Below are positions 4,631 to 40,330 of a DNA stretch of 64,000 nucleotides, piece by piece; position 1 is the first letter of the stretch; the number at the start of each line of letters is the position of its first letter. Source of the stretch: Escherichia coli (GTDB lineage Bacteria; Pseudomonadota; Gammaproteobacteria; Enterobacterales; Enterobacteriaceae); assembly GCF_024700885.2 (NCBI RefSeq), contig NZ_CP117016.1. One strand, written 5' to 3'. The notes under the pieces were generated by a model, which did no database searches, had not been told where the DNA came from, and was given only the letters and a program-made list of their open reading frames with translations. The translations under genes were made by a program, and so were the position numbers.

Positions 4631-4885
4631 TCAATAATGATAACGACATGCTGCAATGAGCAGTGAATCGTCGGTAACCGCGTATACCAGACGGTGCTCC
4701 TCTGTAATGCGTCGGGACCAGAAACCTGACAAATTATGTTTCAGGGGTTCTGGCTTCCCCTTACCTTCAAATGGCGTTCTGCGGGTATCTTTGATAAGTT
4801 CATTGATCTTTTTAACAATTCGCTTATCTGTTTCCTGCCAGTACAGATAATCGTCCCATGATTCCTCAGACCAGATTAGTTTCAC
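4631..4885 (-). CDS. yoeB: Type II toxin YoeB (ribosome-dependent mRNA interferase)
   Basis: 84-aa [87 protein letters not shown]; overlaps the upstream antitoxin by 4 bp. Confidence 0.9.
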
Positions 4886-5133
4886 TCAATGATGTCCTTT
4901 TCCGTTCCTTTGCCTGATTTCAGGCTATCGATTGAGTCCATCAATCTCCGGGCGTTAGCGGGGGAGCGCAGTAGATAAGCCGTCTCTTCCAGCGAGTTGT
5001 ATTCTTCGAGTGACATCAGAACACAAGCCTCTCCATTCTGACGAGTAATAAGGATCGGGGCATGATCTTCAACGGCTTTCATCATTGTTGCCGACAAATT
5101 CTGACGCGCTTCGCTGTAGCTAATTGTACGCAT
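4882..5133 (-). CDS. yefM: Type II antitoxin YefM
   Basis: Track ORF 4882..5160; start trimmed to [55 protein letters not shown] (83 aa). Confidence 0.9.
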
Positions 5134-12741: not shown

Positions 12742-13722
12742 TTACTTCGCGTTGTAATTACGCAGAGCGTTACGCCCCAACACAATCCCCGCGCCAACCA
12801 TGCCGCCCAGCAGCACTGCCAGAATCAAGGTAATTGCCTTTTTCGGACTATCGCGACGAATAGGTAACGTCGGTTTCATCACATAACGGTAAGCATGAAT
12901 ATCAAGATCATCAACCTTTAAGCTTTCGATATCCAGCAGGTTTTGACGAGTCTGATAGTAGTTTGGCGAGAACACCAACGGACGGGTCGCCTCGTGCTTA
13001 ATCATCGACTCCAGCGCTTCGCTCCCCAAAAGGAACAACGTATCTTGTGTGATATCTTCGCCAGTCTGTTGAATCTGCGGTTTTGTCACCTGCGCCTGAT
13101 TCGCATACTGCAACGCTTCCTGAATCTGACGGATACGCAGATCTTTCTGCTCCTGCGCGACTACTTCCTGCGTTCTTAAAGAGTCCTGCAAGTTTTTCCG
13201 TCCCAGAGCAATGTTGTCTTTGAGATCCTTTTCTAGCTCTTGATTCACTTTATCGTCAACTTGCTGAATGTATTGGGCCAACTTCATTTGTGCGCCCTCT
13301 GCAGTTTGCCCAACATAAGAAACAGTCAATGGTAATTGCTGGTTCTTAACAGAAGGTTCGATGGTAAGTTTTTCTCGTTCTTCCTGATTATCCAGCGTTT
13401 CTGCTAATGCAGAGAAGGCAGAACTGAAGCGACCAATTAACGTCTCCTGCAAATCCGATACTTTCGGTGCAGCCTGACCATAGATAACATTCATGGCATT
13501 GTTATAGCCAGCAATTTGCCCCACGTCGGGCTGAGTGATAATTGCTGTTGACGTCCATTTCTCCTTCGCTACTGCCAAATATCCAATAGCCAGGGCAATA
13601 GCCACAATGACGGAAATGATGATTGTCATCTTGCCACGCCACAACTGCACTAGTAAATCAATCAAATCAATCTGTTCCGGGTCATGGTTTTGCCCAGAAA
13701 CATTATTATTTTCTACTCTCAT
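12742..13722 (-). CDS. wzzB: O-antigen chain-length determinant (polysaccharide co-polymerase)
   Basis: Track ORF 12742..13758; start trimmed to MRVENNNVSGQNHDPEQIDLIDLLVQLWRGK; transmembrane segments at both ends. Confidence 0.85.
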   Translation of the reverse strand: MRVENNNVSGQNHDPEQIDLIDLLVQLWRGKMTIIISVIVAIALAIGYLAVAKEKWTSTAIITQPDVGQIAGYNNAMNVIYGQAAPKVSDLQETLIGRFSSAFSALAETLDNQEEREKLTIEPSVKNQQLPLTVSYVGQTAEGAQMKLAQYIQQVDDKVNQELEKDLKDNIALGRKNLQDSLRTQEVVAQEQKDLRIRQIQEALQYANQAQVTKPQIQQTGEDITQDTLFLLGSEALESMIKHEATRPLVFSPNYYQTRQNLLDIESLKVDDLDIHAYRYVMKPTLPIRRDSPKKAITLILAVLLGGMVGAGIVLGRNALRNYNAK

Positions 13723-13867
13723 CATTACCCTAACTGACGGAAATTTCCAAGTCCGCATAGTTTAGCGATAATCCTCGTGAATGCTATAGGATAAGTGATA
13801 AAAATAATGAATTGTTGTGTAAGTAACAAAAGACAATCAGGGCGTAAATAGCCCTGATAACAAGATG

Positions 13868-15282: not shown

Positions 15283-16689
15283 TTAATCCAGCCATTCGGT
15301 ATGGAACACACCTTCTTTATCAATACGCTTATAAGTATGCGCACCAAAATAGTCACGCTGTGCCTGGATCAGGTTCGCAGGCAGAACAGCAGCACGGTAG
15401 CTGTCGTAATAGGCAACCGCTGCGGAGAAGGTCGGAACCGGAATACCGTTCTGTACTGCATAAGCAACGACATCACGCAGCGCCTGCTGGTAGTCATCGG
15501 CAATTTGCTTGAAGTACGGAGCCAGCAGCAGGTTAGCGATCTGCGGATTTTCGGCATAAGCATCGGTGATTTTCTGCAGGAACTGCGCACGGATGATGCA
15601 GCCAGCACGGAAAATCTTCGCGATTTCGCCGTAGTTCAGATCCCAGTTGTACTCTTCAGACGCAGCACGCAGCTGAGAGAAGCCCTGGGCGTAAGAAACG
15701 ATTTTGCCCAGATACAGCGCACGACGAACTTTTTCGATGAACTCAGCCTTGTCGCCTGCTGGCTGTGCTTGCGGACCAGAGAGAACTTTAGATGCGGCAA
15801 CACGCTGATCTTTCAGAGAAGAGATATAACGTGCAAACACAGACTCGGTAATCAGCGACAGCGGTTCGCCGAGATCCAGCGCGCTCTGGCTGGTCCATTT
15901 ACCGGTACCTTTGTTAGCCGCTTCATCCAGGATCACATCAACCAGGTAGTTACCGTCTTCATCTTTTTTGGTGAAGATATCTTTGGTGATGTCGATCAGG
16001 TAACTGCTCAGTTCACCGTTATTCCACTCGGTAAAGGTCTGCGCCAGTTCTTCGTTGGTGAGGTTCAGGCCACCTTTAAGCAGAGAATAGGCTTCAGCAA
16101 TCAGTTGCATATCACCGTATTCGATACCGTTGTGAACCATCTTCACATAATGGCCTGCGCCATCGGCACCAATATAGGTAACGCATGGCTCCCCGTCTTC
16201 AGCTACTGCGGCGATTTTGGTCAGGATTGGTGCAACCAGTTCATAGGCTTCTTTCTGCCCACCAGGCATAATAGAAGGACCTTTCAGCGCGCCTTCTTCA
16301 CCACCGGAGACACCGGTACCAATGAAGTTAAAGCCTTCGGCAGAAAGTTCACGGTTACGACGAATGGTGTCCTGGAAGAAGGTATTGCCACCATCAATGA
16401 TGATGTCACCTTTATCGAGATATGGTTTGAGGGAATCAATAGCAGCATCCGTGCCTGCACCTGCTTTCACCATTAACAGGATGCGACGAGGCGTTTCCAG
16501 AGATTCAACAAACTCTTTCACCGTATAGTAAGGAACCAGTTTCTTGCCTGGATTTTCGGCAATCACTTCTTCCGTCTTTTCACGGGAACGGTTGAAAATA
16601 GAGACGGTATAACCACGGCTTTCGATGTTGAGCGCAAGGTTGCGCCCCATCACTGCCATACCGACTACGCCGATCTGTTGCTTTGACAT
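15283..16689 (-). CDS. gnd: 6-phosphogluconate dehydrogenase (decarboxylating)
   Basis: 468-aa [33 protein letters not shown]... Confidence 0.95.
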
Positions 16690-16806: not shown

Positions 16807-17205
16807 TCACACGAACGATTTTGCAAAAGAAGGGTCAAATGGCCCCTCCTTAACTTCCACCATAAGAGCACGCGGAGATAGGCATTCGACACTGTGTATA
16901 TCGCCCGGAGAAAACTCCACAATGCTCATTCCAGTATTATCTCCTGCTATAAATTGCTTTATAACCTCACCATTTCTACCATACAAACAAACCTGAAGTT
17001 GCCCCTCCATAACAATGAACATTTCCCACTGATGAGGAAGTTCGTGATAATGCGGTTCAACATAGCTGCCCTTTACTAATGCAATAAGTAAACGCTGTAC
17101 CTTTTCTTGATGCGAGCCGTGCATCATAAGGTGGGAACGTAAACGTTCCGATTGCCCGGCTTGATCATATAATTCGTCGAGTTGGTCATTATCAATTAAT
17201 CGCAT
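16807..17205 (-). CDS. wbuC: Cupin-fold protein, WbuC family (terminal gene of fnl-type O-antigen clusters)
   Basis: 132-aa ORF with cupin-like motif PHYHELPHQWEMFIVMEG; sits after wbuB next to gnd; 14-bp overlap with wbuB. Confidence 0.6.
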   Translation of the reverse strand: MRLIDNDQLDELYDQAGQSERLRSHLMMHGSHQEKVQRLLIALVKGSYVEPHYHELPHQWEMFIVMEGQLQVCLYGRNGEVIKQFIAGDNTGMSIVEFSPGDIHSVECLSPRALMVEVKEGPFDPSFAKSFV

Positions 17206-18406
17206 TGCATGCCTCCAACCTCATTTCTATCGTCTGTGCCGCAGACTCAACGGAGAATTGTTCTTTCAACAATATATTCGCCCCCGAACCAAGTTGCCGG
17301 CGCACATCAATATCATGCAACATTAATAGCGCAGATTGACATAATTTATCGTCCTCACCATTGACATGGATTAATCCCGCATTATTTTGATTGACAATGT
17401 CGAGCAAATCATTTCCGGCATTTACGCTACCTAAAATAGGTAGCGACTGAACCATATAGCCTAATAACTTACCAGGAAAATTATGGGAAGAGTGTCTAGC
17501 GGAAAGAGAAAACAAGCCGATATCCATTTCCGACAAAATGAACTTAAATTCATCTTGGTTAACCGAGGGCAAATAGGTGAAATTCGTCAATGCCCACTCA
17601 GATGCTAATGAATTAATTAATTCAACTTCATCCCCCTGGCCAATAAATAGGAAATGAGCTTGAGGATATGCTGCCATGTTTCTCACAAGTCGCATCAAGT
17701 TTGTCATGTCCTGTGCATGACCTATGTTTCCACCATAGAAGAAAATGGTTTTATCCTCTAGGCCAAGTCGCTTACGTAGTGGTATATAATCCTTGGGTAT
17801 GATCGTTGGTGTTAGGGATGCCCAATTACGCAAAACTTCGCACGGATAGCCTTTATTATCTTTCCGAAAAACATCAAGATTCTTATCAGACATAAGTCCA
17901 ATACGATTTGCCTGACGATAAGATATTTTTTCAAAAAGACGAAAGTAGCGTTCTATTGGGGAACCAGCATTAAGCATTCCTGCATCAATTACCCATTGTG
18001 GAAACATATCTCTTAAAATAAGATAAGCAGGACATTGGCAACGAGCTTTAATTTTTTTAACTAAAGGCCCCCAGAATATGGAAGGTGAATAATAAATCAC
18101 CCCCTCAAAGGTCTCTTTTTTTACCCATTTTTTGATGGCTTTCCACGCCCGATAGGACAAAAGCGTTTCATTGACCGCTCGCTGAATTTTACTTACATCC
18201 TTGAGCGGCCCGCTTTTAAAACGCCATGTTTTTACCCCCTGAAAGGTATCAAAAGAAATCTCTTCTTGCATGCCCGTACCAGGAGTAATTACCGTAACAT
18301 CGTGCCCACGCTGGATAAATTCTTGAGCAAGTTCATGAAACATTTTTGCACCAACACGAGTACTGTTGGGCAGGTAATCATCTATGATTAAAGCAAGTTT
18401 CATCAA
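17192..18406 (-). CDS. wbuB: GT4-family glycosyltransferase, probable L-FucNAc transferase (WbuB-like)
   Basis: 404-aa ORF MMKLALIIDDYLPNSTRVGAKMFHELAQEF...; immediately downstream of fnlC as in other fnl-type clusters. Confidence 0.65.
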   Translation of the reverse strand: MMKLALIIDDYLPNSTRVGAKMFHELAQEFIQRGHDVTVITPGTGMQEEISFDTFQGVKTWRFKSGPLKDVSKIQRAVNETLLSYRAWKAIKKWVKKETFEGVIYYSPSIFWGPLVKKIKARCQCPAYLILRDMFPQWVIDAGMLNAGSPIERYFRLFEKISYRQANRIGLMSDKNLDVFRKDNKGYPCEVLRNWASLTPTIIPKDYIPLRKRLGLEDKTIFFYGGNIGHAQDMTNLMRLVRNMAAYPQAHFLFIGQGDEVELINSLASEWALTNFTYLPSVNQDEFKFILSEMDIGLFSLSARHSSHNFPGKLLGYMVQSLPILGSVNAGNDLLDIVNQNNAGLIHVNGEDDKLCQSALLMLHDIDVRRQLGSGANILLKEQFSVESAAQTIEMRLEACNAIN

Positions 18407-19533
18407 TATTCTTTCCAGACGACTCTCTTAACATAATCTGTGTAAGAGTGAACAATTCTGACAACTTTATCCGACACATTTGGCATGCTGTAATCACTAA
18501 CCTGACGTAAAAGACGGACTTCACCTCGCGGTTGTGTTGCCAGAATATCCAGCGCTTGTAATACGCGTTCACACTCTAACCCCACCATCATGACGGATGC
18601 TTCCTCAAAGCCTTCCGGACGCTCATGCGCTTCCCGGATGTTTACCGCTGGGAAATTCATGATGGATGACTCTTCAGTGATAGTACCGCTATCTGAAAGC
18701 ACAGCTCGTGAGTTCTTCTGCAAGTGGTTATAATCATGGAAACCCAATGGTTTCAGTAGATTTATATTTGAATGAAATTCAATTCCTTGCTCACGGATTC
18801 GGTTACGTGTCCTTGGGTGTGTGGAGACAATAACTGGAAGATTATATTTTTCAGCAACAGTATTTAGAATGTTCGCAAGCTTTACGAGCTGTTTTGGAGA
18901 ATCAACATTCTCTTCACGATGCGCACTTACTACAAAAAACTCACCAGACTGTAGATTCAAACGCGATAGCACATCTGAACCATCAATTTGGGGCATATAA
19001 TATGAAAGAACCTCAAACATAGGGCTACCAGTTTTTATGATCCGATCAGCTGGGATACCTTCAGCCAAGAGATATTCACGAGCAATATCACTGTAGGTCA
19101 TATTGATATCAGCCGTATGGTCAACAATACGTCTGTTGGTTTCTTCAGGCACGCGTTGATCGAAACAACGGTTACCTGCTTCCATATGAAATATAGGCAC
19201 TTTACGGCGTTTGGCCGGAATGGCAGAAATACATGAATTCGTATCGCCCAATACCAGTATTGCTTCAGGTTTTTCGATTTCTAATACTTCATCTACCTTA
19301 ATAATAACCTGACCAATGGTTTCCGCCGCATTTTTACCCGCTGCATTTAAAAAATAATCAGGTTTTCGAACACCCAAGTCATTGAAGAACACTTCATTTA
19401 ATTCGTAATCATAATTTTGACCAGTATGGACAATAATATGCTCGCAGTATTCATCAAACTTAGCAAGAACCCTCGACAAACGGATAATCTCAGGACGGGT
19501 TCCAACAACAGACATAACTTTTAATTTTTTCAT
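18403..19533 (-). CDS. fnlC: UDP-N-acetylglucosamine 2-epimerase (non-hydrolysing), FnlC-type
   Basis: 376-aa ORF MKKLKVMSVVGTRPEIIRLSRVLAKFDEY...HTGQNYDYELNEVFF (WecB/MnaA fold). Confidence 0.8.
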   Translation of the reverse strand: MKKLKVMSVVGTRPEIIRLSRVLAKFDEYCEHIIVHTGQNYDYELNEVFFNDLGVRKPDYFLNAAGKNAAETIGQVIIKVDEVLEIEKPEAILVLGDTNSCISAIPAKRRKVPIFHMEAGNRCFDQRVPEETNRRIVDHTADINMTYSDIAREYLLAEGIPADRIIKTGSPMFEVLSYYMPQIDGSDVLSRLNLQSGEFFVVSAHREENVDSPKQLVKLANILNTVAEKYNLPVIVSTHPRTRNRIREQGIEFHSNINLLKPLGFHDYNHLQKNSRAVLSDSGTITEESSIMNFPAVNIREAHERPEGFEEASVMMVGLECERVLQALDILATQPRGEVRLLRQVSDYSMPNVSDKVVRIVHSYTDYVKRVVWKEY

Positions 19534-20636
19534 TATAGAGGTCTCGCAATAGTATCGGGCTCATCACGGTTGAAAATTTCATTTGCCCAGAGCATGACTA
19601 TTAATTCATCAGTTCCAATATTTGTAATGTCATGTGTCCAACCAGGAACTGTTTCAACAATCTTAAACTCACCCGATGAAACTTTCAGTTCATATCGCTC
19701 ACCGGTAATCACATGTTCAAATTTAAAGCATGCCTGACCTCGAATGACCAAAAACTTCTCATTTTTACTGTGATGGTAATGTCCGCCACGCGTAATACCA
19801 GGGTGAGCAGTAAAAAATGAAAACTGCCCCGCTGAAGGCGTTTTCAACATCTCACAAAAGACTCCGCGGGCATCCCCATAAAAAGGTACCTTGTACGCAA
19901 ACTTCTCTGCTGGTAAATAACTCAGCCATGTAGAATACAATGCACGGGTAAATCCCGCCCCGACAGCCTCTGTGATCAGGGTGGAACGGCTATTTTTGAA
20001 GCTATAAATTAATTCTGCAACTTCACCAACTGTTGTTGAATAAATTGGTGCAACAACTTTATATCCACTTTCAACCGTCCCAGAGAGAAGAGCTATAGCA
20101 TCAGTACAAACATCATCAATATAGACCAGATTGACTGGCGCTGCTGCATCATTGATAGTAATCTCAATATCATTGGAAATATTGTAGCAAAAAGTTGCTA
20201 TAAAAGAATTATAGTTTGGCTTACACCATTTACCAAAAACGTTTGGATATCTGAAAATATAATACGAAGAACCACTAGCAGCAGCATATTTTTCGACATA
20301 GCTTTCAGCTACAGCTTTGCTAACCCCATAAGCATTATTAAGTTCAGCTTGTATCGAAGAACTTAGCATAATTGGTGTATTCTTACCAATAGAAAGGAGA
20401 TACTCAACTATATGCTTTGTTAAATCACTGTTTCCAGAAATAAACTCATCATCAGTCTTAGGTCTATTGATACCAGCTAAGTGATAAATAAAATCGGCAT
20501 CCTGTAAGCCTTGTTCAAGATCTTGCTTCGTTGATTCTCGATCAATTCTAATAAGATCTTTATAACCAAGTTCCTCAAGCCTCAAACATAAATTACGACC
20601 AATAAAACCATTTGCACCAGTAACTAATATTTTCAT
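19533..20636 (-). CDS. fnlB: FnlB/Cap5F-type reductase of the UDP-L-FucNAc pathway
   Basis: Track ORF 19533..20669; start trimmed to MKILVTGANGFIGRNLCLRLEELGY (Rossmann motif at the N-terminus). Confidence 0.75.
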   Translation of the reverse strand: MKILVTGANGFIGRNLCLRLEELGYKDLIRIDRESTKQDLEQGLQDADFIYHLAGINRPKTDDEFISGNSDLTKHIVEYLLSIGKNTPIMLSSSIQAELNNAYGVSKAVAESYVEKYAAASGSSYYIFRYPNVFGKWCKPNYNSFIATFCYNISNDIEITINDAAAPVNLVYIDDVCTDAIALLSGTVESGYKVVAPIYSTTVGEVAELIYSFKNSRSTLITEAVGAGFTRALYSTWLSYLPAEKFAYKVPFYGDARGVFCEMLKTPSAGQFSFFTAHPGITRGGHYHHSKNEKFLVIRGQACFKFEHVITGERYELKVSSGEFKIVETVPGWTHDITNIGTDELIVMLWANEIFNRDEPDTIARPL

Positions 20637-20637
20637 A

Positions 20638-21672
20638 TCATGAATCCAGATTATATTTTTCACCAGCACGAATTGCTCGAATAAAGGCTAATTTTAGCAA
20701 GAGCTCTTTCATGCCTTCAACATCTAACCGTTGAGTATTATGAGAGTTATAATCTTCTATTTCAGATATTCGGCTATCACCTTGCTCAACATATTTGCCA
20801 TAATTAAGGTCACGAAGATCTGGCGGGACACGGTAATAATCGCCCATATCTATAGCAGCGATCATTTCCTCACGACTAAGTAGAGCTTCATATAATTTCT
20901 CGCCATGACGCGTTCCAATGACATTTACCGGATGGTCAGGAACATTTAGTAATTCCTTTAAAGCAATAGCTAATGTGTCAATAGTTGCTGCAGGTGCTTT
21001 TTGCACAAAGATATCACCATTATTACCATGTTCAAACGCATAAAGAACTAAATCTACCGCATCCTCAAGAGTCATCATAAAGCGGGTCATATTAGGATCA
21101 GTTATTGTGAGTGGCTTGCCCGCTCTAATAAGATCAACAAATAATGGAATAACTGAACCGCGAGATGCCATAACATTCCCATAACGGGTACCACATATTA
21201 CTGTTTTATTGCGATCAACATTACGGGATTTCGCGACCATGACCTTTTCCATCATAGCTTTTGAAATACCCATTGCGTTAATCGGGTATACAGCTTTATC
21301 AGTACTTAGGCATACAACCCTCTTCACTTCATTCGCTATAGCTGCTTCAAGAACATTTTCCGTACCAAGGATATTAGTTTTAACGGCTTCCATAGGATGA
21401 AATTCACATGATGGAACTTGCTTAAGTGCCGCTGCATGATATATAAAATCAACACCGCGAGTCGCATTCAAAATACTACGGTAATCTCTGACATCACCAA
21501 TATAGAACTTTAATTTTTGATTATTGTATTTTTTCCGCATATCATCTTGTTTTTTTTCATCACGACTAAATATACGGATTTCTGCAATATCTGTATCAAG
21601 AAATCTATTTAATACAGCATTCCCGAAAGAGCCAGTACCACCAGTAATTAACAGTGTTTTAGATGAAAACAT
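20638..21672 (-). CDS. fnlA: UDP-GlcNAc 4,6-dehydratase/5-epimerase, FnlA/CapE-type
   Basis: 344-aa ORF MFSSKTLLITGGTGSFGNAVLNRFLDTDIAEIRIFSRDEKKQ... Confidence 0.8.
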   Translation of the reverse strand: MFSSKTLLITGGTGSFGNAVLNRFLDTDIAEIRIFSRDEKKQDDMRKKYNNQKLKFYIGDVRDYRSILNATRGVDFIYHAAALKQVPSCEFHPMEAVKTNILGTENVLEAAIANEVKRVVCLSTDKAVYPINAMGISKAMMEKVMVAKSRNVDRNKTVICGTRYGNVMASRGSVIPLFVDLIRAGKPLTITDPNMTRFMMTLEDAVDLVLYAFEHGNNGDIFVQKAPAATIDTLAIALKELLNVPDHPVNVIGTRHGEKLYEALLSREEMIAAIDMGDYYRVPPDLRDLNYGKYVEQGDSRISEIEDYNSHNTQRLDVEGMKELLLKLAFIRAIRAGEKYNLDS

Positions 21673-21713
21673 AATAACCGAACCTCAAATCATTGACAAA
21701 TATACTCTGGAAG

Positions 21714-22892
21714 CTATTTACTTACTTGACCTAACTTATTAGTAATTGAACTCTGTCCACTAAGTGTTACTCTATTCAAAAACATATATATAAAAGATAG
21801 AAAGAAATAGCCGTTAGATCCTAAAACTAAACCTTTGGTATTGAAAATTATCCCAATTAACATCCATATAATTGCTTGATATGTCATTCCAAATGTCGCA
21901 ATAGAAATAGTAAAGATTAAAAATAAAAAGAGTGTAATAAATGTTAACCCACCGTAATTAAACAGTATAACCCAGCCCATATCCGAACTTTGTTTAATAT
22001 CGGGGATTGATGAAGATATGTTTTGCTGTAATCCAAATATAATATTAAAAAAATCTAAATTACCTACAACAAACACATGTTGCTGTAATAAGATATCCAG
22101 AGTTCTTGTGCCATCTCCAGAAACGAACTCATCATAAAATCGAGGAAAGAACACTGCTCCTAAGCTATAAACTAAAACTCCCAAAATCAATACTGTTGCA
22201 ATTTTTATATTAATATTAAGTCTAGAGCAACCGATACCAATAATGGCTGCAATCACAGCCATGTTAGAATTTACGATTTGAGTCAGACAAATTAAAGTAA
22301 TTAAAGCATAACGCCTTTTCATCATAAAAAATGACATATAGATCATCAAAAATGGTGTCATGAAATTTATTTCACCCGACAACCCAAATCCTCTTACTTT
22401 AGCATTTTGTTCCCAAAGATTAACAGAGTCAGACATACCAAAGAAAGTATATAACAATCTTTTTAACTCTGGACTTATATACATACCAAAAAAAATAACT
22501 ATTTGAACCCAGAGAGAATACACTAATATTCGCTCCATTAATTTCAAGTCACCCTTTATGAATCTATTTACTAAATAATACGCAGGAACAAATGAAAATA
22601 AAAACAACATAAATAATCTAACGGTAAAATAACTTTGAAAAGAATGGCTTTTTTGAAACAAATCGAAAACCAAACAAAATAAAAAAATAATTATGAATAT
22701 AGATAACAGCAACAAATTTTTACGATCTATAGATACCAATCCATTGCCCATAGTAATCATAAAATTACGCACTAAATACATAATACCAAAAAATGCAGGA
22801 ATAAATGCCAAATATAAGAAAGGTATTATCAGCGACAATCTAAAAAAAACAACAAAAAATAATAAAAAAGCCATCAATGCATTATACTTCAT
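21714..22892 (-). CDS. wzy: O-antigen polymerase (polytopic membrane protein)
   Basis: 392-aa very hydrophobic, AT-rich ORF with many predicted transmembrane segments; lies between the fnl genes and a glycosyltransferase. Confidence 0.6.
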   Translation of the reverse strand: MKYNALMAFLLFFVVFFRLSLIIPFLYLAFIPAFFGIMYLVRNFMITMGNGLVSIDRKNLLLLSIFIIIFLFCLVFDLFQKSHSFQSYFTVRLFMLFLFSFVPAYYLVNRFIKGDLKLMERILVYSLWVQIVIFFGMYISPELKRLLYTFFGMSDSVNLWEQNAKVRGFGLSGEINFMTPFLMIYMSFFMMKRRYALITLICLTQIVNSNMAVIAAIIGIGCSRLNINIKIATVLILGVLVYSLGAVFFPRFYDEFVSGDGTRTLDILLQQHVFVVGNLDFFNIIFGLQQNISSSIPDIKQSSDMGWVILFNYGGLTFITLFLFLIFTISIATFGMTYQAIIWMLIGIIFNTKGLVLGSNGYFFLSFIYMFLNRVTLSGQSSITNKLGQVSK

Positions 22893-22941
22893 TGTTTTTT
22901 ACCTTCCATACAAATGTCTTAATAAATGAAGATAGCATCAT

Positions 22942-23928
22942 CTATATATACCAGTTCTTAAGCAAATCATCTGTTTTTGAGGTGCCACGCTCTCCAATAC
23001 CATGTATATATGCCGAAATCAACACATATCTGTAAAGAATTGGGAAATAGAGTTTTTTATTTGCATCTGTTTTTTTTAAAAATTGTATTATTTTTTTAAA
23101 AATAAATTTATTGAAAAATATTGATTGGCATATTTTACTAAACGTTTTGTGTTTACTAAATATTTTCTCAACTAGGAATAATTTTTTATTAGTAGAAAAC
23201 ATTTCAGGCCTTACTTTGCTTAATACATTCATACCATCACGTGCTGTAGCACGAATTTTTTTTGTATATCCTTCTATATCGCCACTGTATTCGTGATGTA
23301 ATATTTTAAAATCAGCAAAAATAATTTTGAAGTCATTTTTTTCAAGTTGCCACCCAAACTCATGATCTTCACAACCATAACCAATAAAATTTTCATTATA
23401 TGAAACTATACCTGATGAAAATGCCTTTCTATCAAGAACACAATTCATTGCGACAAAAGTCCAGGCATTCATAGAGATATCAGGACTATCACTAAACTTA
23501 GGGTGTAAAGAGTTCCTGTAGCGATAGTAATTGCTGGTCTCAATGAGTTCATTTTCGAATCTAACTTCCCCACATAAAACGCTTTTACTATTCATTTTTT
23601 TTAAATAGTTCAGCAACGATGATATATATCCACTTGCGGGTATACAATCATCATCAAGAAATATTAAATAATCCCCATGGGCTAGGGATGCTCCGAAATT
23701 GCGCTTAGCGGAGAGTATATTTTTAGTATGTTGATGGATAATATTAATATTTTTCTTTTTATGAATATTATCAGCAACTACATCATCAATTTCTTTACCA
23801 CTATGACTATCGGAAACAATTACTTCTAGGTGTAGACTATTGTCTTTAGCCTGAGAATCGAGCTCAGAGAGAATCAATTCTAATTGAACTGGGCGTTTCC
23901 AAACAGATATTATTACCGAGATATTCAT
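22942..23928 (-). CDS. GT2-family glycosyltransferase
   Basis: 328-aa ORF MNISVIISVWKRPVQLELILSELDSQ... with DDD motif (YLIFLDDDCIP); 4-bp overlap with wzx. Confidence 0.7.
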   Translation of the reverse strand: MNISVIISVWKRPVQLELILSELDSQAKDNSLHLEVIVSDSHSGKEIDDVVADNIHKKKNINIIHQHTKNILSAKRNFGASLAHGDYLIFLDDDCIPASGYISSLLNYLKKMNSKSVLCGEVRFENELIETSNYYRYRNSLHPKFSDSPDISMNAWTFVAMNCVLDRKAFSSGIVSYNENFIGYGCEDHEFGWQLEKNDFKIIFADFKILHHEYSGDIEGYTKKIRATARDGMNVLSKVRPEMFSTNKKLFLVEKIFSKHKTFSKICQSIFFNKFIFKKIIQFLKKTDANKKLYFPILYRYVLISAYIHGIGERGTSKTDDLLKNWYI

Positions 23929-25169
23929 AATTTATGAGGCCTACATACGGTTTTATTTACTTTAATGAATTGTTTAAGCATTCCCATGCCAACGAAAATT
24001 TCAGCTACAATAAGACTCACAATCGCACCCGTTGCTCCATAATATTTACATGCTGGATAAACTATGCTTAAACAAGTAATAGTTCCTAGGAAAATAGATT
24101 TGAAATACTGTTTTTGCATCCCATTAGGTACTAATACAAGTAACCCGACAACTGTATTAAAACCTATGAATATAGGAAGCAATGTCATTAATTGCATTGC
24201 ACCTGCAATTACTTCACCTTTCATGCCGAATATTAATAATGATAATTGGTTGGCAAAAAGTAAAAATGGTATTGCTAAAGCCATGTAAAAAACAAGCAAG
24301 TATTTAAGAATCATTCTAGATTTTAAGTTTGCAATATATGGATTCTCTCTTTGCAAAATGTTAATTCTTGGATAAAAAGCTTGGACTAATGGTGATGCAA
24401 GTCCAGCCAAACCTTGTTTGATCATGTTAGCTGAGTTAAAGATGCCTACATCAAACTTTCCAGATACGCCACCCAATACAAGAGGGGTCAACATTGTGTA
24501 TGCACTAGTCGCAAGTGTTGAACAAAAAAAATGAAATCCATTTTTTAAAATTACTTGAATTTTCTTTATCGGTGGCCTACATAAAAAAATCTCCTTGATA
24601 ATAAGTAAGTAGGCAACGCCACAGAATGAATACAAAATATATGGCATGCTCAATAATAAGGCACTGATGTACATCGGCGTTGCGGGTTTTATAATTAGAT
24701 AAACTGCAACGACTGCTATGCCTCGTGAAAATAGTGACAGCACAGCCATCACACTCATCATTTCCTTACCTTGCAAAAACCAATTTGGATTGAAAACACC
24801 TGCAATTACGGACAGAAAACCAACACATAACAAAGACTTAACGTCGTTAAAAACATAAAAAAAACAGAGTATTATGAGTATTATAGCTGCAATTAGCATT
24901 AATATAAAACGAGCAAGCACCACACCGCAAAAAAATTCAGAATGGTATTTTTTATCGTTATTTAGTGCTATTTCTCTTGTCCCACTATATCCAAAACCAT
25001 ATTCAACAACCATTAACAACACTTGTATAGTTATCAATGAAAAACTCAGATCACCAAAATTCGATACACCAATGACTCTAACAAGATAAGGAAAAATTAA
25101 TAATGGCAGTAGGTAATTGGCACCCTGACTTATTGCAAGGTAAAGAACATTTAGTTTAGTTTTGCTCAA
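23925..25169 (-). CDS. wzx: O-antigen flippase
   Basis: 414-aa multi-pass membrane ORF MSKTKLNVLYLAISQGANYLLPLLIFPYLVRVIGVSNFGDL... (polysaccharide biosynthesis/MOP-type N-terminus). Confidence 0.7.
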   Translation of the reverse strand: MSKTKLNVLYLAISQGANYLLPLLIFPYLVRVIGVSNFGDLSFSLITIQVLLMVVEYGFGYSGTREIALNNDKKYHSEFFCGVVLARFILMLIAAIILIILCFFYVFNDVKSLLCVGFLSVIAGVFNPNWFLQGKEMMSVMAVLSLFSRGIAVVAVYLIIKPATPMYISALLLSMPYILYSFCGVAYLLIIKEIFLCRPPIKKIQVILKNGFHFFCSTLATSAYTMLTPLVLGGVSGKFDVGIFNSANMIKQGLAGLASPLVQAFYPRINILQRENPYIANLKSRMILKYLLVFYMALAIPFLLFANQLSLLIFGMKGEVIAGAMQLMTLLPIFIGFNTVVGLLVLVPNGMQKQYFKSIFLGTITCLSIVYPACKYYGATGAIVSLIVAEIFVGMGMLKQFIKVNKTVCRPHKL

Positions 25170-25247
25170 TGAAGTGCCCCATATACAACAGATATCATTC
25201 GAGTAACTTATTCACATGAATCAATAAGTTGTTTATTCAGGGCAAGA

Positions 25248-26321
25248 TTACGAAAGCCCGCTCCCCGCAAGAACTGACGCCAGATAGTTTCTGTCCATGG
25301 CTGCTTTTCGCATCTTACGTCTTAACCCTGCCTTGAATACCTTATCATTCGTCAAAATATTAATAGCAATGTGCCGTATCCCTGAAAATAAATCTGCTGC
25401 ATTTCCTCTTCTTATTTTGCAGTCGTCTTCATTCATTACCACGTCCAGACGCCAGTGCAGCTTATTCTCCACGTGCCAGTGGTTTCGGATTGCTGTGGCG
25501 AACTTCTCTGCGGTTAAATCAGCAGAACTGATATAATATCTGACCGTCATTTCTGGCTCTTTCTTTTGTTCTGCTATTATTGACCGAAAGGAGACTGCCA
25601 CGCATAATTTCTTCAGACCTTTCCATTCAAACGTGAAATCAAAAAGTTCATCAGGGACATCGCAAACAATATGAAGACGGATTTCGTCTCTGCCGTGACT
25701 CTTTTCACTCATTGCGTAACTGTCATGCTCTGGATTATTTAATTCTTTCAGTGGAAATTTTTCCTCAAAGGCTTTATTAAGCCGCCCCTGATTTCCTTTT
25801 ACAGCGAATAAATAATCACCGCCCTGTTTTTGTATCTTCTCTGCAATATCTTTCTGGCAACCCATCGCATCAGTTGTGATGATTTTTCCTTTAATATCCA
25901 GCATGTTAAGAAGTTCAGGGATAGCTGTAATTTCATTGGATTTCTCATCCGTCCTGATCTGTCCGATGACCAGACTGTGCATTGTTGAGAACGCACTAAT
26001 GACATGAATCGCTCCCTTGCGGCGACTCTTGTCATAAGAATGCCGGAGTGTTTTTCCATCAATTGCGATGAAGTCTTTATCATCTGAAGAATGGCAGTCA
26101 CGCATCCAGTTAATAAAGCACTCGTGAAATTTTGCAGGACTGATACAGGATACAACTCTGGCAATGGTATCGTGAACAGGAATACCATTTTCAAAATCAC
26201 CATATTGCTTCAAAAAATCGAGATGTGTTTCCCCAAAATCCTCTATATCTTCCCAGCCTTCTGCACCCGAAATAACGGCACAAATAGTCAACAGTAGAAT
26301 ATCCGACAATTTATGTTCCAC
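25248..26321 (-). pseudogene. ISAs1-family (H-repeat-associated) transposase, outer copy, N-terminal ~20 codons separated by the nested insertion
   Basis: 357-aa ORF beginning [11 protein letters not shown] aligns to residue 22 onward of the 378-aa inner-copy ORF; roughly 15 substitutions by eye. Confidence 0.7.
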
Positions 26322-26344
26322 TTTCCAGGCTTGTCAGGGAAAGA

Positions 26345-27481
26345 TTACGAAAGCCCGCACCCCGCAAGGACTGACGCCAGATAGTTTCTGTCCATGGCTG
26401 CTTTTCGCATCTTACGTCTTAACCCTGCCTTGAATACCTTATCATTCGTCAAAATATTAATAGCGATGTGCCGTATCCCTGAAAATAATTCTGCTGCATT
26501 TCCTCTTCTTATTTTGCAGTCGTCTTCATTCATTACCACGTCCAGACGCCAGTGCAGCTTATTCTCCACGTGCCAGTGATTTCGGATCGCTGTGGCGAAC
26601 TTTTCTGCGGTTAAATCAGCAGAACTGATATAATATCTGACCGTCATTTCTAGCTCTTTCTTTTGTTCTGCTATTATGGACCGAAAGGAGACTGCCACGC
26701 ATAATTTCTTCAGTCCTTTCCATTCAAACGTGAAACCAATAAGTTCATCAGGGACATCGCAAACAATATGAAGACGGATTTCTTCTCTGCCGTGATTTTT
26801 TTCACTAATTGCGTAACTGTCATGCTCTGGATTATTTAATTCTTTCAGTGGAAATTTTTCCTCAAAGGCTTTATTAAGCCGCCCCTGATTTCCTTTTACA
26901 GTGAATAAATAATCACCGCCCTGTTTTTGTATCTTCTCTGCAATATCTTTCTGGCAACCCATCGCATCAGTTGTGATGATTTTTCCTTTAATATCCAGCA
27001 TGTTAAGAAGTTCAGGGATAGCTGTAATGTCATTGGATTTCTCATCCGTCCTGATCTGTCCGTTGACCAGACTGTGCATTGTTGAGAACGCACTAATGAC
27101 ATGAATCGCTCCCCTGCGGCGACTCTTGTCATAAGAATGCCGGAGTGTTTTTCCATCAATTGCGATGACGTCTTTATCATCTGAAGTATGGCAATCTCGC
27201 ATCCAGTTAATAAAGCACTCGTGAAATTTTGCAGGACTGATACAGGATACAACTCTGGCGATGGTATCGTGAACAGGAATACCATTTTCAATATCACCGT
27301 ATTGTTTTAAAAAATCGAGATGTGTTTCCCCAAAATCCTCTATATCTTCCCAACCTTCTGCACCAGAAATAACGGCACAAATAGTCAACAGTAGAATATC
27401 CGATAATTTATGTTCCACTTTCCAGGCTTGTCTGTAATCGGGGATAATAGAAATATGTTCCATCAATTTTTTAAGTTCCAT
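26345..27481 (-). CDS. ISAs1-family (H-repeat-associated) transposase, intact inner copy
   Basis: 378-aa [66 protein letters not shown]..., recognised as the E. coli H-repeat protein family (YhhI-like). Confidence 0.85.
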
Positions 27482-27834
27482 TTTGTTCTCCTTAATTATG
27501 TAAGGAGTATTTGATCATGTATAAGCAATAAAAAACAGCTTTATGTAATGAGGAATATCTCAATTTTTAAACATAAAATGCGAATTGTTTAGTACAAAAA
27601 AGCAGCATTACGTGATCTTTCCCTGCCAGGCTTGTCTGTAATCGGGAATAACAGAAATATGTTCCATCAATTTTTTAAGTTCCATTTTGTTCTCCTTATT
27701 TAAGCAAGGAGTATTTGATCATATATAAGCTGTGAAAAACAGTTTTAGGTAATGAGGGATATCTCAATTTTTGAACATAAAATGCGAATTATTTAGTACA
27801 AAAAGTGTACTTCTGATAATCTTTCCCTGCCCCT

Positions 27835-27878
27835 AGACACGCTACCGCCCCTGGCTTTACAGCTACCAGAGCACTGCA
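27835..27878 (-). promoter_or_regulatory. JUMPstart element with ops site (RfaH loading site) for the O-antigen operon
   Basis: + strand cacgctaccgcc at 27838..27849 is the reverse complement of the ops consensus GGCGGTAGCGTG; the surrounding ~40 bp closely match the copy upstream of wza. Confidence 0.8.
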
Positions 27879-28134: not shown

Positions 28135-29028
28135 TTATTCGCTTAACAGCTTCTCAATCCCTTTACGGAACTTCGCCCCTTCTTTCAGGTTGCGTAGTCC
28201 ATACTTCACAAATGCCTGCATATACCCCATTTTTTTACCGCAGTCGTAGCTGTCACCTGTCATCAGCATGGCATCAACGGACTGTTTTTTCGCCAGTTCA
28301 GCGATGGCATCAGTCAGCTGAATACGCCCCCATGCACCAGGCTGAGTGCGTTCAAGTTCCGGCCAAATATCTGCAGAAAGCACATAGCGACCAACGGCCA
28401 TGATGTCTGAGTCCAGCGTCTGCGGCTGATCCGGTTTTTCGATGAATTCAACAATGCGGCTGACTTTACCTTCACGGTCCAGTGGTTCTTTGGTCTGGAT
28501 GACCGAGTATTCAGAGAGGTCACCCGGCATACGTTTTGCCAGCACCTGGCTACGGCCCGTTTCATTGAAACGCGCAATCATGGCAGCAAGGTTGTAGCGC
28601 AGCGGGTCGGCACTGGCGTCGTCGATCACAACGTCCGGCAGTACCACGACAAATGGATTGTCACCAATGGCGGGTCGTGCACACAAAATGGAGTGGCCTA
28701 AACCTAAAGGTTCGCCCTGACGCACGTTCATAATGGTCACGCCCGGCGGACAGATGGACTGCACTTCCGCCAGTAGTTGACGCTTCACGCGCTGTTCAAG
28801 GAGAGATTCTAATTCATAAGAGGTGTCGAAGTGGTTTTCGACCGCGTTCTTGGACGCGTGAGTTACCAGGAGGATTTCTTTGATCCCTGCAGCCACAATC
28901 TCGTCAACGATGTACTGAATCATTGGCTTGTCGACGATCGGTAGCATCTCTTTGGGAATCGCCTTAGTGGCAGGCAACATATGCATCCCAAGACCCGCTA
29001 CAGGAATAACTGCTTTTAAATTCGTCAT
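28135..29028 (-). CDS. galF: UTP--glucose-1-phosphate uridylyltransferase-like regulatory subunit GalF
   Basis: Track ORF 28135..29040; start trimmed to [45 protein letters not shown]. Confidence 0.9.
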
Positions 29029-39106: not shown

Positions 39107-40330
39107 TTATCCCCGAATATCATTTATAAATTGACGTAACACGTTCTCTTTATCGAGCGTGCGTTCGGCATATTCACGTGCCACCGTGTTGTGTTTGGGC
39201 AGCAGGAGCGCCTGACGAATCCCCGCCACCAGCGCCTCGACCGATTCCGGTTCCACGCAAACCGCAATGCCCGGAAAGGTTTCGCAAAGCTGTCCCAGTT
39301 CTGTGTGGGCTTCAGCAGTAATCACCGCGTTACCGCCTACCGCCAGAATATTGGTCAGTTTCGACGGCAATACGGCATCTGCCGCGCCGCGTTTTTGCAC
39401 CACCAGATGGCAATCCCCCATCTTCAGCAGTGCGGGTAAAGCGTCATATGATTGCAGCGGAAAAAATTGCATGTTGCGCAGTCCACGCTGCTGCGCCATT
39501 TTTTCCAGCCGCGCTTTGCCGCCGCCCTGCCCGACAATGGCAAAAATAAGCGGTTCATCGCGCAGGCGATCGGCAGCTTCAATAACGTTTTCCAGCCCCT
39601 GCTTTTCACCAATATTGCCGGAGTAAAGAATGATTTTTTTGTTATCCGGCAGGCCAAGCTGGTTACGAAGGGCGTCAACATCGGCGTCTGCAACATGTTG
39701 AAAACGGGCGATTTCCGACCAGTTGGGGAAGAAGATGACGTTTTCCGCCGCCACGCCTTTTTCGATAGCTTTATTCATCATCGAGCGCGAAATCGTGGAG
39801 ACGTTATCGACGTTATGCAGTCCGCTACGTTCGAACGCCGTCGCCAGCTGTGCCACTTTGCCGCCTTTACTTTTTCCGGCAAGGCCCAGCCCCAGCATGG
39901 CGTCCACTTCGTAATCCTGAATATGCAGCACCGTGCGCGCACCAGAAAGTTTCGCCAGCAGGCGCATTCCCGGCGTGCAAAACAGCGTTGGCACCACGCC
40001 GATAATGCGATCCGGCTTCCAGCGACGTTGCGCCATCAACGGAAAAAAACTGCTGACGGCAAAACTGCCGAGATGCAACAGGCGTTTCAGGGTGCTCGGC
40101 TGTTTTGGCACGTACAGCGGGCAGCGCCACACCGTGGCGGCCCCCTCTTCTCGTTTGTACCGCCAGGCGGAATAGTTCTCGCCCACCTGCCATTGCGGGT
40201 AGTAAGGCGGTGCGGTAATAACCCGCACCTCATGACCTTGTGCCGCCAGCCATTCCACCATCTCGCCGGTGTATTTGCCGATGCCGGTTAACTCCGGCGA
40301 GTAGTTAATGCCGTAGACCAGTATTTTCAT
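39107..40330 (-). CDS. wcaI: Colanic acid GT4 glycosyltransferase WcaI
   Basis: 407-aa [38 protein letters not shown]... Confidence 0.85.

Follow-up and report, generated by a model that had tools for sequence, protein, structure and literature searches.

[quoted passage not shown] 2005 J Clin Microbiol 43:703). It agrees with the present locus in all eight genes, in their order and in their position at galF-gnd, and its biosynthetic genes are without difference from those found here. A comparison with known fnlABC-containing clusters, as suggested in a first-pass annotation of this DNA, finds one part of the locus in two further E. coli clusters. The gnd-proximal module fnlA-fnlB-fnlC-wbuB-wbuC is common to O118/O151, with 98.6% DNA identity over 4.85 kb, and the fnlA-wbuC module also occurs in O145, with 94.8% identity over 4.85 kb. 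The likeness ends at the 5' end of fnlA in both cases. The wzx, wzy and other glycosyltransferase genes of O118/O151 and O145 are unlike those of O15, and O118/O151 has in addition three acetamidino-modification genes and ribitol-phosphate-type genes that are absent from O15.

More distant relatives are found in other species. Three enzyme families are common to this cluster, to Cap5/8 E-F-G of Staphylococcus aureus and to WbjB-C-D of Pseudomonas aeruginosa O11, where the UDP-L-FucNAc pathway (Kneidinger et al. 2003, as cited in PMC7685785) feeds a capsule or another species' O antigen, and where neither the downstream transferases nor the polymer are those of O15.

Gene content and serogroup of the locus

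The window, that is, the whole 64-kb stretch of E. coli DNA analysed, contains eight intact open reading frames at positions 16807-25169, all on the minus strand. Read from galF to gnd, they are wzx, a GT2 glycosyltransferase gene, wzy, fnlA, fnlB, fnlC, wbuB and wbuC. They are flanked by gnd (15283-16689) and galF (28135-29028), and the gene of the chain-length regulator WzzB is located at 12742-13758. The gene labels are backed by Pfam and NCBIfam, and that of wzy by its source name and membrane topology. The content and order are thus those given in the first-pass annotation, but its inventory of the gnd-galF interval overlooked ca 2.6 kb of ISAs1 elements (25238-27829). Its statement that there are no rml or other dedicated sugar-pathway genes beyond fnl holds, as neither rml, man, glf nor any other nucleotide-sugar gene was found between gnd and galF in the open reading frames or by Pfam and NCBIfam. 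There is likewise no wzm/wzt ABC transporter reading frame at the locus (ORF list, Pfam) and no initiating transferase gene within the cluster (Pfam, NCBIfam); wecA lies outside the window.

The base composition divides the cluster in two. The GC content is 0.311 over wzx-GT2-wzy and 0.396 over fnlA-wbuC, to be compared with ca 0.52 in the distant flanks, and A/T homopolymers of 6 bases or more number 24 in the wzx-wzy block vs 8 in a flanking segment of the same size. These values agree with the AT-richness and long A/T runs that had been noticed by eye for this segment.

The first gene, wzx (23925..25169, minus strand, TTG start), codes for the O15 O-unit flippase of 414 aa, with ca 10 hydrophobic segments and a match to PF01943 (E=6.3e-33). 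It is followed by the GT2 glycosyltransferase gene (22942..23928, minus strand, 328 aa, PF00535 E=6.6e-19), in whose product the DDD motif reads IFLDDDCIP, and by wzy (21714..22892, minus strand), the gene with the lowest GC content of the cluster, 28.8%. The 392-aa product of wzy is assigned as the O15 O-antigen polymerase from its source name and membrane topology; it is polytopic, with ca 9 hydrophobic segments. Wzy has no match in Pfam or NCBIfam, and NCBIfam is without any model for this Wzx. Such misses by family models are usual among Wzy proteins. The evidence for the serogroup was therefore taken from DNA identity and source names.

The exact Wzx and Wzy protein sequences, each present on at least 1000 contigs, bear the source names 'O15 family O-antigen flippase' and 'O15 family O-antigen polymerase', respectively. 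At the DNA level, wzx, GT2 and wzy are 100% identical to many RefSeq genomes with these NCBI (PGAP) 'O15 family' names, and among 5,426 complete E. coli genomes, 99 carry the wzx-GT2-wzy segment with an identity of at least 99%. All eight genes recur in the record 'E. coli O15:H12 strain 2273-PO3', with 99.5% identity over the fnlA-wbuC block and 98.5% over the wzzB-galF stretch, while strain MLI114 is 100% identical to the window across all 64 kb. The label O15 rests here on the NCBI gene naming and on the organism name of one record, 2273-PO3. Taken together with the pathway discussed below, we estimate a probability of ca 95% that the locus is the E. coli serogroup O15 cluster, Wzx/Wzy-dependent and with the biosynthesis as proposed.

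As judged from sequence, the locus is a Wzx/Wzy-dependent O-antigen cluster, since it has the position between galF and gnd, a flippase and a polymerase, and a JUMPstart/ops element. The earlier description of a Wzx/Wzy-dependent, non-K-12 cluster of the L-FucNAc type is hence supported. That description had left the serogroup unassigned; the name given here is O15.

To our knowledge, every in-silico serotyping scheme includes the O15 cluster, and because it was already sequenced in 2005, the present assignment carries little weight as a discovery. The cluster is already known, and the serogroup name and the nested insertion sequences are all that is added to the earlier description. The assignment has the practical use that it types the source strain, and O15 is among the serotypes of the ExPEC9V/10V bioconjugate vaccines (PMC11813929; PMC9614730).

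UDP-L-FucNAc pathway and proposed assembly of the repeat unit

The gene fnlA (20638..21672, minus strand, 344 aa) codes for a predicted UDP-GlcNAc 4,6-dehydratase/5-epimerase, which scores 757.6 against the TIGR04130 equivalog (cut-off 730) and matches the solved structures 4j2o (E=1.7e-190) and CapE 3vvb (E=1.9e-150). In the alignment it shows M-G-I-S-K (MxxxK) in place of the usual SDR YxxxK, like CapE-type enzymes, and it would perform the first step of the pathway. Next to it is fnlB (19533..20636, minus strand), of wbjC/capF type, which codes for a predicted UDP-2-acetamido-2,6-dideoxy-beta-L-arabino-hexul-4-ose reductase. Its length of 367 aa is counted from the RefSeq start, the longest open reading frame extending to 20669. 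FnlB has Pfam Polysacc_synt_C and Epimerase matches and exceeds the NF047837 equivalog cut-off (550.7 vs 500), and its best solved relative, over the full length, is S. aureus Cap5F (2zkl, E=1.6e-100). The third gene, fnlC (18403..19533, minus strand), codes for a predicted non-hydrolysing UDP-sugar 2-epimerase of 376 aa (PF02350 E=1.7e-93; TIGR00236 220.8 vs cut-off 210), which matches S. aureus CapG (7ya2) over residues 1-374 with E=1e-125 and would catalyse the final step to UDP-L-FucNAc.

It has to be considered whether these genes instead yield another 2-acetamido-2,6-dideoxy-L-hexose, such as L-QuiNAc or L-RhaNAc, or the acetamidino sugar L-FucNAm. FnlA is common to the L-QuiNAc pathway (PMC4379981), and the nearly identical module of O118/O151, as well as that of O145, belongs to clusters whose WbuB enzymes have been assigned to an L-FucNAm linkage (PMC7685785). 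However, the reductase is of the WbjC/CapF type according to the equivalog score and the Cap5F match, and the rmlD model gives just 18 bits, which speaks for a C-4 reductase of the CapF/WbjC type and not for an RmlD-like one of the QnlB/WbvR type. Moreover, the AglZ/HisF2, HisH and N-acetyl sugar amidotransferase genes that are adjacent to fnlA in O118/O151 are absent from this cluster. In view of the reductase family and the lack of amidotransferase genes, an L-QuiNAc or L-FucNAm pathway is rejected, and a different product sugar in general is considered highly improbable. By their sequences, the fnl genes are thus true CapE/CapF/CapG-type UDP-L-FucNAc enzymes; the equivalog scores and the full-length matches to CapE, CapF and CapG bear out the L-FucNAc pathway of the first-pass annotation.

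Directly after fnlC, and before wbuC, lies wbuB (17192..18403, minus strand), which codes for a GT4 glycosyltransferase of 403 aa with Pfam Glyco_transf_4 and Glycos_transf_1 domains. The cluster of sequences at 90% identity to which it belongs includes a member with the source name 'glycosyltransferase WbuB'. The WbuB proteins of homology group HG5, which have at least 51% identity to one another, have been assigned the L-FucNAc-(alpha1->3)-D-GlcNAc linkage (PMC7685785). The GT4 domains, the gene position and the identity of the wbuB-containing module to those of O118/O151 and O145 place the present WbuB in this group, and it is predicted to form the same linkage. The last gene of the cluster, wbuC (16807..17205, minus strand), adjoins gnd and codes for a WbuC-family cupin of 132 aa (TIGR04366 cupin_WbuC, 143.2 bits vs cut-off 42; RefSeq entry WP_001236679.1).

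The O15 repeat is reportedly ->2)-beta-D-Gal-(1->3)-alpha-L-FucNAc-(1->3)-beta-D-GlcNAc-(1->, so that, besides L-FucNAc, it contains two sugars that housekeeping pools supply. That this repeat contains L-FucNAc is in keeping with the prediction made in the first-pass annotation. A unit of three sugars, Gal, L-FucNAc and GlcNAc, fits the two glycosyltransferases of the cluster together with WecA. In the proposed mechanism, housekeeping UDP-GlcNAc would be converted into UDP-L-FucNAc by FnlA, FnlB and FnlC, and WecA, encoded elsewhere, would initiate the unit with the transfer of GlcNAc-1-P to undecaprenyl phosphate. WbuB would then add alpha-L-FucNAc onto O-3 of GlcNAc, and the GT2 enzyme beta-D-Gal from housekeeping UDP-Gal. 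The latter enzyme is predicted to act on L-FucNAc, its linkage being obtained by elimination from the O15 structure. The trisaccharide unit would be flipped over the inner membrane by Wzx, after which Wzy would join the units via a GlcNAc-(1->2)-Gal bond, WzzB would set the length, and WaaL would ligate the chain to lipid A-core.

Nested ISAs1 elements between JUMPstart and wzx

Upstream of the cluster, a 39-bp JUMPstart element is found at 27838..27876 on the minus strand by pattern match and direct reading, with the ops sequence GGCGGTAG at 27842-27849. It is the RfaH loading site of the O-antigen operon. The element is identical to that of an O40 strain. The wzx start codon follows ca 2.67 kb downstream of it, and at a distance of 8 bp downstream lies the left end of an ISAs1-family element (25238..27829, minus strand; ISEc1-like, 'H-repeat'; NF033564 414 bits).

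This outer element measures 1,291 bp once an inner element and one copy of the duplicated target are removed. It is oriented like the operon. The inner element interrupts its transposase gene, and RefSeq gives the 3' part as a pseudogene without N-terminus. The ends are inverted repeats of the types CAGGGAAAGATTATC... and ...GATTACGA. A target duplication is absent, the two flanks, TGTCTAGGGG and AATAAACAAC, being different from each other. Having a transposase and inverted repeats, it is an ISAs1 element, one whose flanks do not stem from one simple insertion. Its two junctions are found in 98 and 100 genomes, which are essentially all O15-cluster genomes.

The inner element (26335..27625, minus strand, 1,291 bp, NF033564 404 bits) is 96.3% identical to the outer one and sits in the region of codon ~20 of the outer transposase gene. 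Its own transposase gene (26345-27481, 378 aa) is intact, its inverted repeats are CAGGGAAAGAT..., and a 10-bp target duplication, ACAAGCCTGG, is present at 27626-27635 and 26325-26334. The DDE transposase, the inverted repeats at its ends and the target duplication mark it as a member of the ISAs1 family. Chromosomal ISEc1 copies, at 96-97% identity, have in common the 1,291 bp, the CAGGG... terminal inverted repeats and the 378-aa DDE transposase. The present arrangement differs from 'H-repeat' elements elsewhere in that one copy lies inside another and the outer one has no target duplication.

Transcription would probably start upstream of JUMPstart/ops and, aided by RfaH, cross 2.6 kb of co-oriented nested elements before reaching wzx. 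We infer both this read-through and the LPS phenotype of the cluster. The separation of wzx from its promoter and ops could in principle lower the expression, such that the strain would be O15 by genotype with a poorly expressed or silent antigen (rough or semi-rough LPS), and one weak terminator-like site is indeed present on the operon strand within the outer element, at 25690-25674. A search of the region for promoters and terminators is uninformative, with counts near the shuffle expectation. However, the number of terminator-like sites is about that expected from shuffling, all eight genes are intact, and both elements are oriented like the operon. Furthermore, hardly any O15-cluster genome is without the outer element, which the one named O15:H12 carries as well, and the nested form is found in 62 genomes, many of them from human isolates. 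RfaH antitermination acts over long distances. A silenced O15 antigen is accordingly judged very unlikely.

A different role of the elements can be put forward tentatively, although we regard it as rather doubtful. Since the outer element is near-universal in O15, lies 8 bp after JUMPstart and lacks a target duplication, it could be a scar of the assembly of the O15 cluster, in which the low-GC wzx-GT2-wzy block may have been joined to the shared fnlABC-wbuBC module. The outer or the nested copy might also tune the O-antigen expression, either through a longer RfaH-dependent leader or through an outward promoter supplied by the insertion sequence.

The O40 cluster also has ISAs1 remnants just downstream of JUMPstart. 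As its insertion site lies ca 40 bp more downstream, that insertion is of independent origin. A site after JUMPstart shared across serogroups as a recombination hotspot finds no support, as the O40 insertion point differs. Within O15, strain 2273-PO3 (O15:H12) lacks the inner element and carries one intact copy at the site of the outer one. Of the O15 genomes, about 99 in number, 62 show the nested junction. The nested vs single form is a simple marker by which O15 strains can be divided into sublineages.

Gene content and serogroup

The cluster at 16807-25169 consists of eight consecutive ORFs, all on the minus strand and separated by short gaps or small overlaps. Going from galF to gnd, these are wzx (23925-25169; Pfam Polysacc_synt, E=6e-33), a GT2 glycosyltransferase gene (22942-23928; PF00535, with a DDD motif), wzy (21714-22892; ca 9 hydrophobic segments and no family match in Pfam and NCBIfam profile searches), fnlA (20638-21672; TIGR04130 equivalog, 757.6 bits, cut-off 730), fnlB (19533-20636; NF047837 equivalog, 550.7 bits, cut-off 500), fnlC (18403-19533; PF02350, 1.7e-93, and TIGR00236 above cut-off), wbuB (17192-18403; GT4 domains) and wbuC (16807-17205; TIGR04366, 143 bits, cut-off 42). 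Beyond wbuC lie gnd (15283-16689), ugd and wzzB, and on the other side galF (28135-29028) is followed by the colanic-acid cluster. GC content drops to 0.311 in wzx-GT2-wzy and to 0.396 in fnlA-wbuC, compared to ca 0.52 in the distant flanks, and wzx-wzy contains 24 A/T homopolymer runs of 6 or more bases versus 8 in a flank of equal length. These ORFs, family matches and composition values bear out the coordinates, gene order and AT-richness given in the first-pass annotation, and there is nothing unusual about the biosynthetic genes themselves.

When 5,426 complete E. coli genomes were searched by megablast with the 3.5 kb wzy-GT2-wzx DNA, 99 of them gave matches, all of which were at least 99% identical and chromosomal. 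The NCBI pipeline names the genes in these genomes 'O15 family O-antigen flippase' and 'O15 family O-antigen polymerase', and for each of Wzx, Wzy, GT2 and WbuB the identical protein sequence is recorded, with the same names, from at least 1,000 contigs. The same eight genes are present in a record named by its submitter 'Escherichia coli O15:H12 strain 2273-PO3', where fnlA-wbuC is 99.5% and the wzzB-galF stretch 98.5% identical to the window. Over its full 64 kb, the window matches E. coli MLI114 from human stool in Mali (NZ_CP117013.1 1961716-2025715, reverse strand) at 100% identity. Judged by this DNA identity, the gene names and the O15:H12 record, the serogroup, which the first-pass annotation had left unassigned while interpreting the cluster correctly, can now be named as O15. 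The cluster is already known; its reference is GenBank AY647261 (Beutin et al. 2005). The O15 serotype is clinically relevant and, according to PMC9614730 and PMC11813929, part of the ExPEC9V/10V vaccines.

UDP-L-FucNAc pathway and proposed O-unit assembly

Over their full lengths, FnlA, FnlB and FnlC are homologous to the S. aureus enzymes for UDP-L-FucNAc, namely CapE (3vvb, 1.9e-150; also 4j2o, 1.7e-190), CapF (2zkl, 1.6e-100) and CapG (7ya2, 1e-125), respectively. In the FnlA alignment, M-G-I-S-K occupies the position where the SDR YxxxK motif usually sits, a trait of CapE-type enzymes. Two other nucleotide-sugar routes were considered and rejected. Against an L-QuiNAc route, FnlB is a WbjC/CapF-type and not an RmlD-like reductase, the rmlD model scoring just 18 bits, while for an acetamidino-sugar route the modification genes that adjoin fnlA in the O118/O151 cluster are absent here. 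The homology to CapE/F/G and the reductase type of FnlB thus support the earlier reading of the fnl genes as the UDP-L-FucNAc pathway.

Besides fnlABC, no rml, man or other nucleotide-sugar genes were found among the ORFs between galF and gnd. The two transferases for three sugars agree with the unit that had been predicted, namely L-FucNAc plus housekeeping sugars. The O15 repeat unit is reported by Perepelov et al. (2011, Carbohydr Res 346:381) to be ->2)-beta-D-Galp-(1->3)-alpha-L-FucpNAc-(1->3)-beta-D-GlcpNAc-(1->, and the gene content fits this structure exactly. Assembly would start with GlcNAc placed by WecA, after which WbuB would add L-FucNAc and the inverting-type GT2 would add beta-Gal from housekeeping UDP-Gal, the unit-to-unit GlcNAc-(1->2)-Gal bond being made by Wzy. 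In the review PMC7685785, the L-FucpNAc-(alpha1->3)-D-GlcpNAc linkage is ascribed to the WbuB homology group, and FnlA/B/C are given as the UDP-L-FucNAc pathway.

A shared module in other O-antigen clusters

The gnd-proximal half of the cluster, fnlA-wbuC (4.87 kb), was found in 176 genomes, 99 of them at 99% identity or more (the O15 group), 11 at 95-99%, 38 at 90-95% and 28 at ca 80% or below. In the O118/O151 cluster of E. coli 2013C-4538 (locus L005, 9001-13866), fnlA-fnlB-fnlC-wbuB-wbuC shares 98.6% identity with the O15 module, a likeness that does not extend past the 5' end of fnlA; O145 strains fall in the 94.8% identity class. The O15 layout is the familiar one of a shared sugar-pathway module joined to wzx, wzy and transferase genes that are specific to the serogroup and lower in GC, with which the earlier remark on horizontal acquisition is consistent. 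It is also consistent with surveys (including PMC4379981) that place fnlABC in 11-15 O-groups. The GalF protein (WP_000183060.1) is identical among the O15, O40 and O118/O151 strains examined.

In two O15 genomes, NZ_AP022536.1 (1930384-1936025; hit H66) and NZ_CP071002.1 (3587451-3593512; hit H67), the fnlA-wbuC match comes in two pieces, with an IS1 and an IS5 transposase, respectively, annotated beneath, and 'polysaccharide biosynthesis protein' stands in place of the fnlA name. The pattern points to an insertion within fnlA, and such a variant may be O-antigen-negative.

Nested ISAs1 elements and other features of the window

The 2.97 kb that separate wzx from galF are not empty but hold JUMPstart and nested insertion sequences. 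The eight genes listed earlier between gnd and galF stand; that list had left out two ISAs1-family elements at 25238-27829. The 39-bp JUMPstart (27838-27876, minus strand) contains ops, GGCGGTAG, and 8 bases past it begins the outer element (25238-27829; 'H-repeat', ISEc1-like), whose transposase gene is interrupted at about codon 20 by the inner element (26335-27625; 1,291 bp, with an intact 378-aa transposase gene). A 10-bp target duplication, ACAAGCCTGG, borders the inner element on both sides, and removing this element with one duplicated copy leaves an outer element of 1,291 bp in which the 378-aa reading frame is intact. The inner and outer elements share 96.3% identity, and both are oriented in the operon direction. 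No target duplication was found at the outer element, its flanks being TGTCTAGGGG and AATAAACAAC.

Using 80-bp queries spanning each junction, we found the JUMPstart-outer junction in 100 complete genomes, the outer-wzx junction in 98 and the inner-outer junction in 62. Strain 2273-PO3 has one intact element at the identical site, and the window aligns to it end to end once the inner element is deleted in silico. On the basis of these counts and the single-element strain, the outer element is a fixed, ancestral component of the O15 cluster, and the inner one, having inserted later, marks a large sublineage. The nested pair that follows ops is a minor curiosity, possibly useful as a lineage marker. 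The O40 cluster of E. coli AR_0369 (locus L002, 9809-14068) has three degraded ISAs1 transposase genes, one directly downstream of JUMPstart, but its insertion point is ca 40 bp further downstream than that of O15; wzx is frameshifted in this strain.

A transcript from the galF-proximal promoter would have to cross 2.6 kb of insertion sequence before reaching wzx, and RfaH-dependent read-through is the likely mechanism. A promoter/terminator consensus scan of the insertion-sequence region gave counts near shuffle expectation. Two further exact ops matches lie upstream of wza, at 52011-52018 and 52598-52605 (minus strand), the former, 183 bp before the wza start, presumably being the colanic-acid JUMPstart; another, which may be a chance match, is at 39337-39344 within the colanic-acid region.

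Elsewhere in the window, dgcE (diguanylate cyclase; 58323-61641, plus strand) is a frameshifted pseudogene by the annotation of the identical MLI114 sequence. A RelE/ParE-family toxin gene lies between asmA and yegH (54145-54763) together with a helix-turn-helix gene, likely its antitoxin, and the yefM-yoeB toxin-antitoxin pair (4631-5133) adjoins the his operon.
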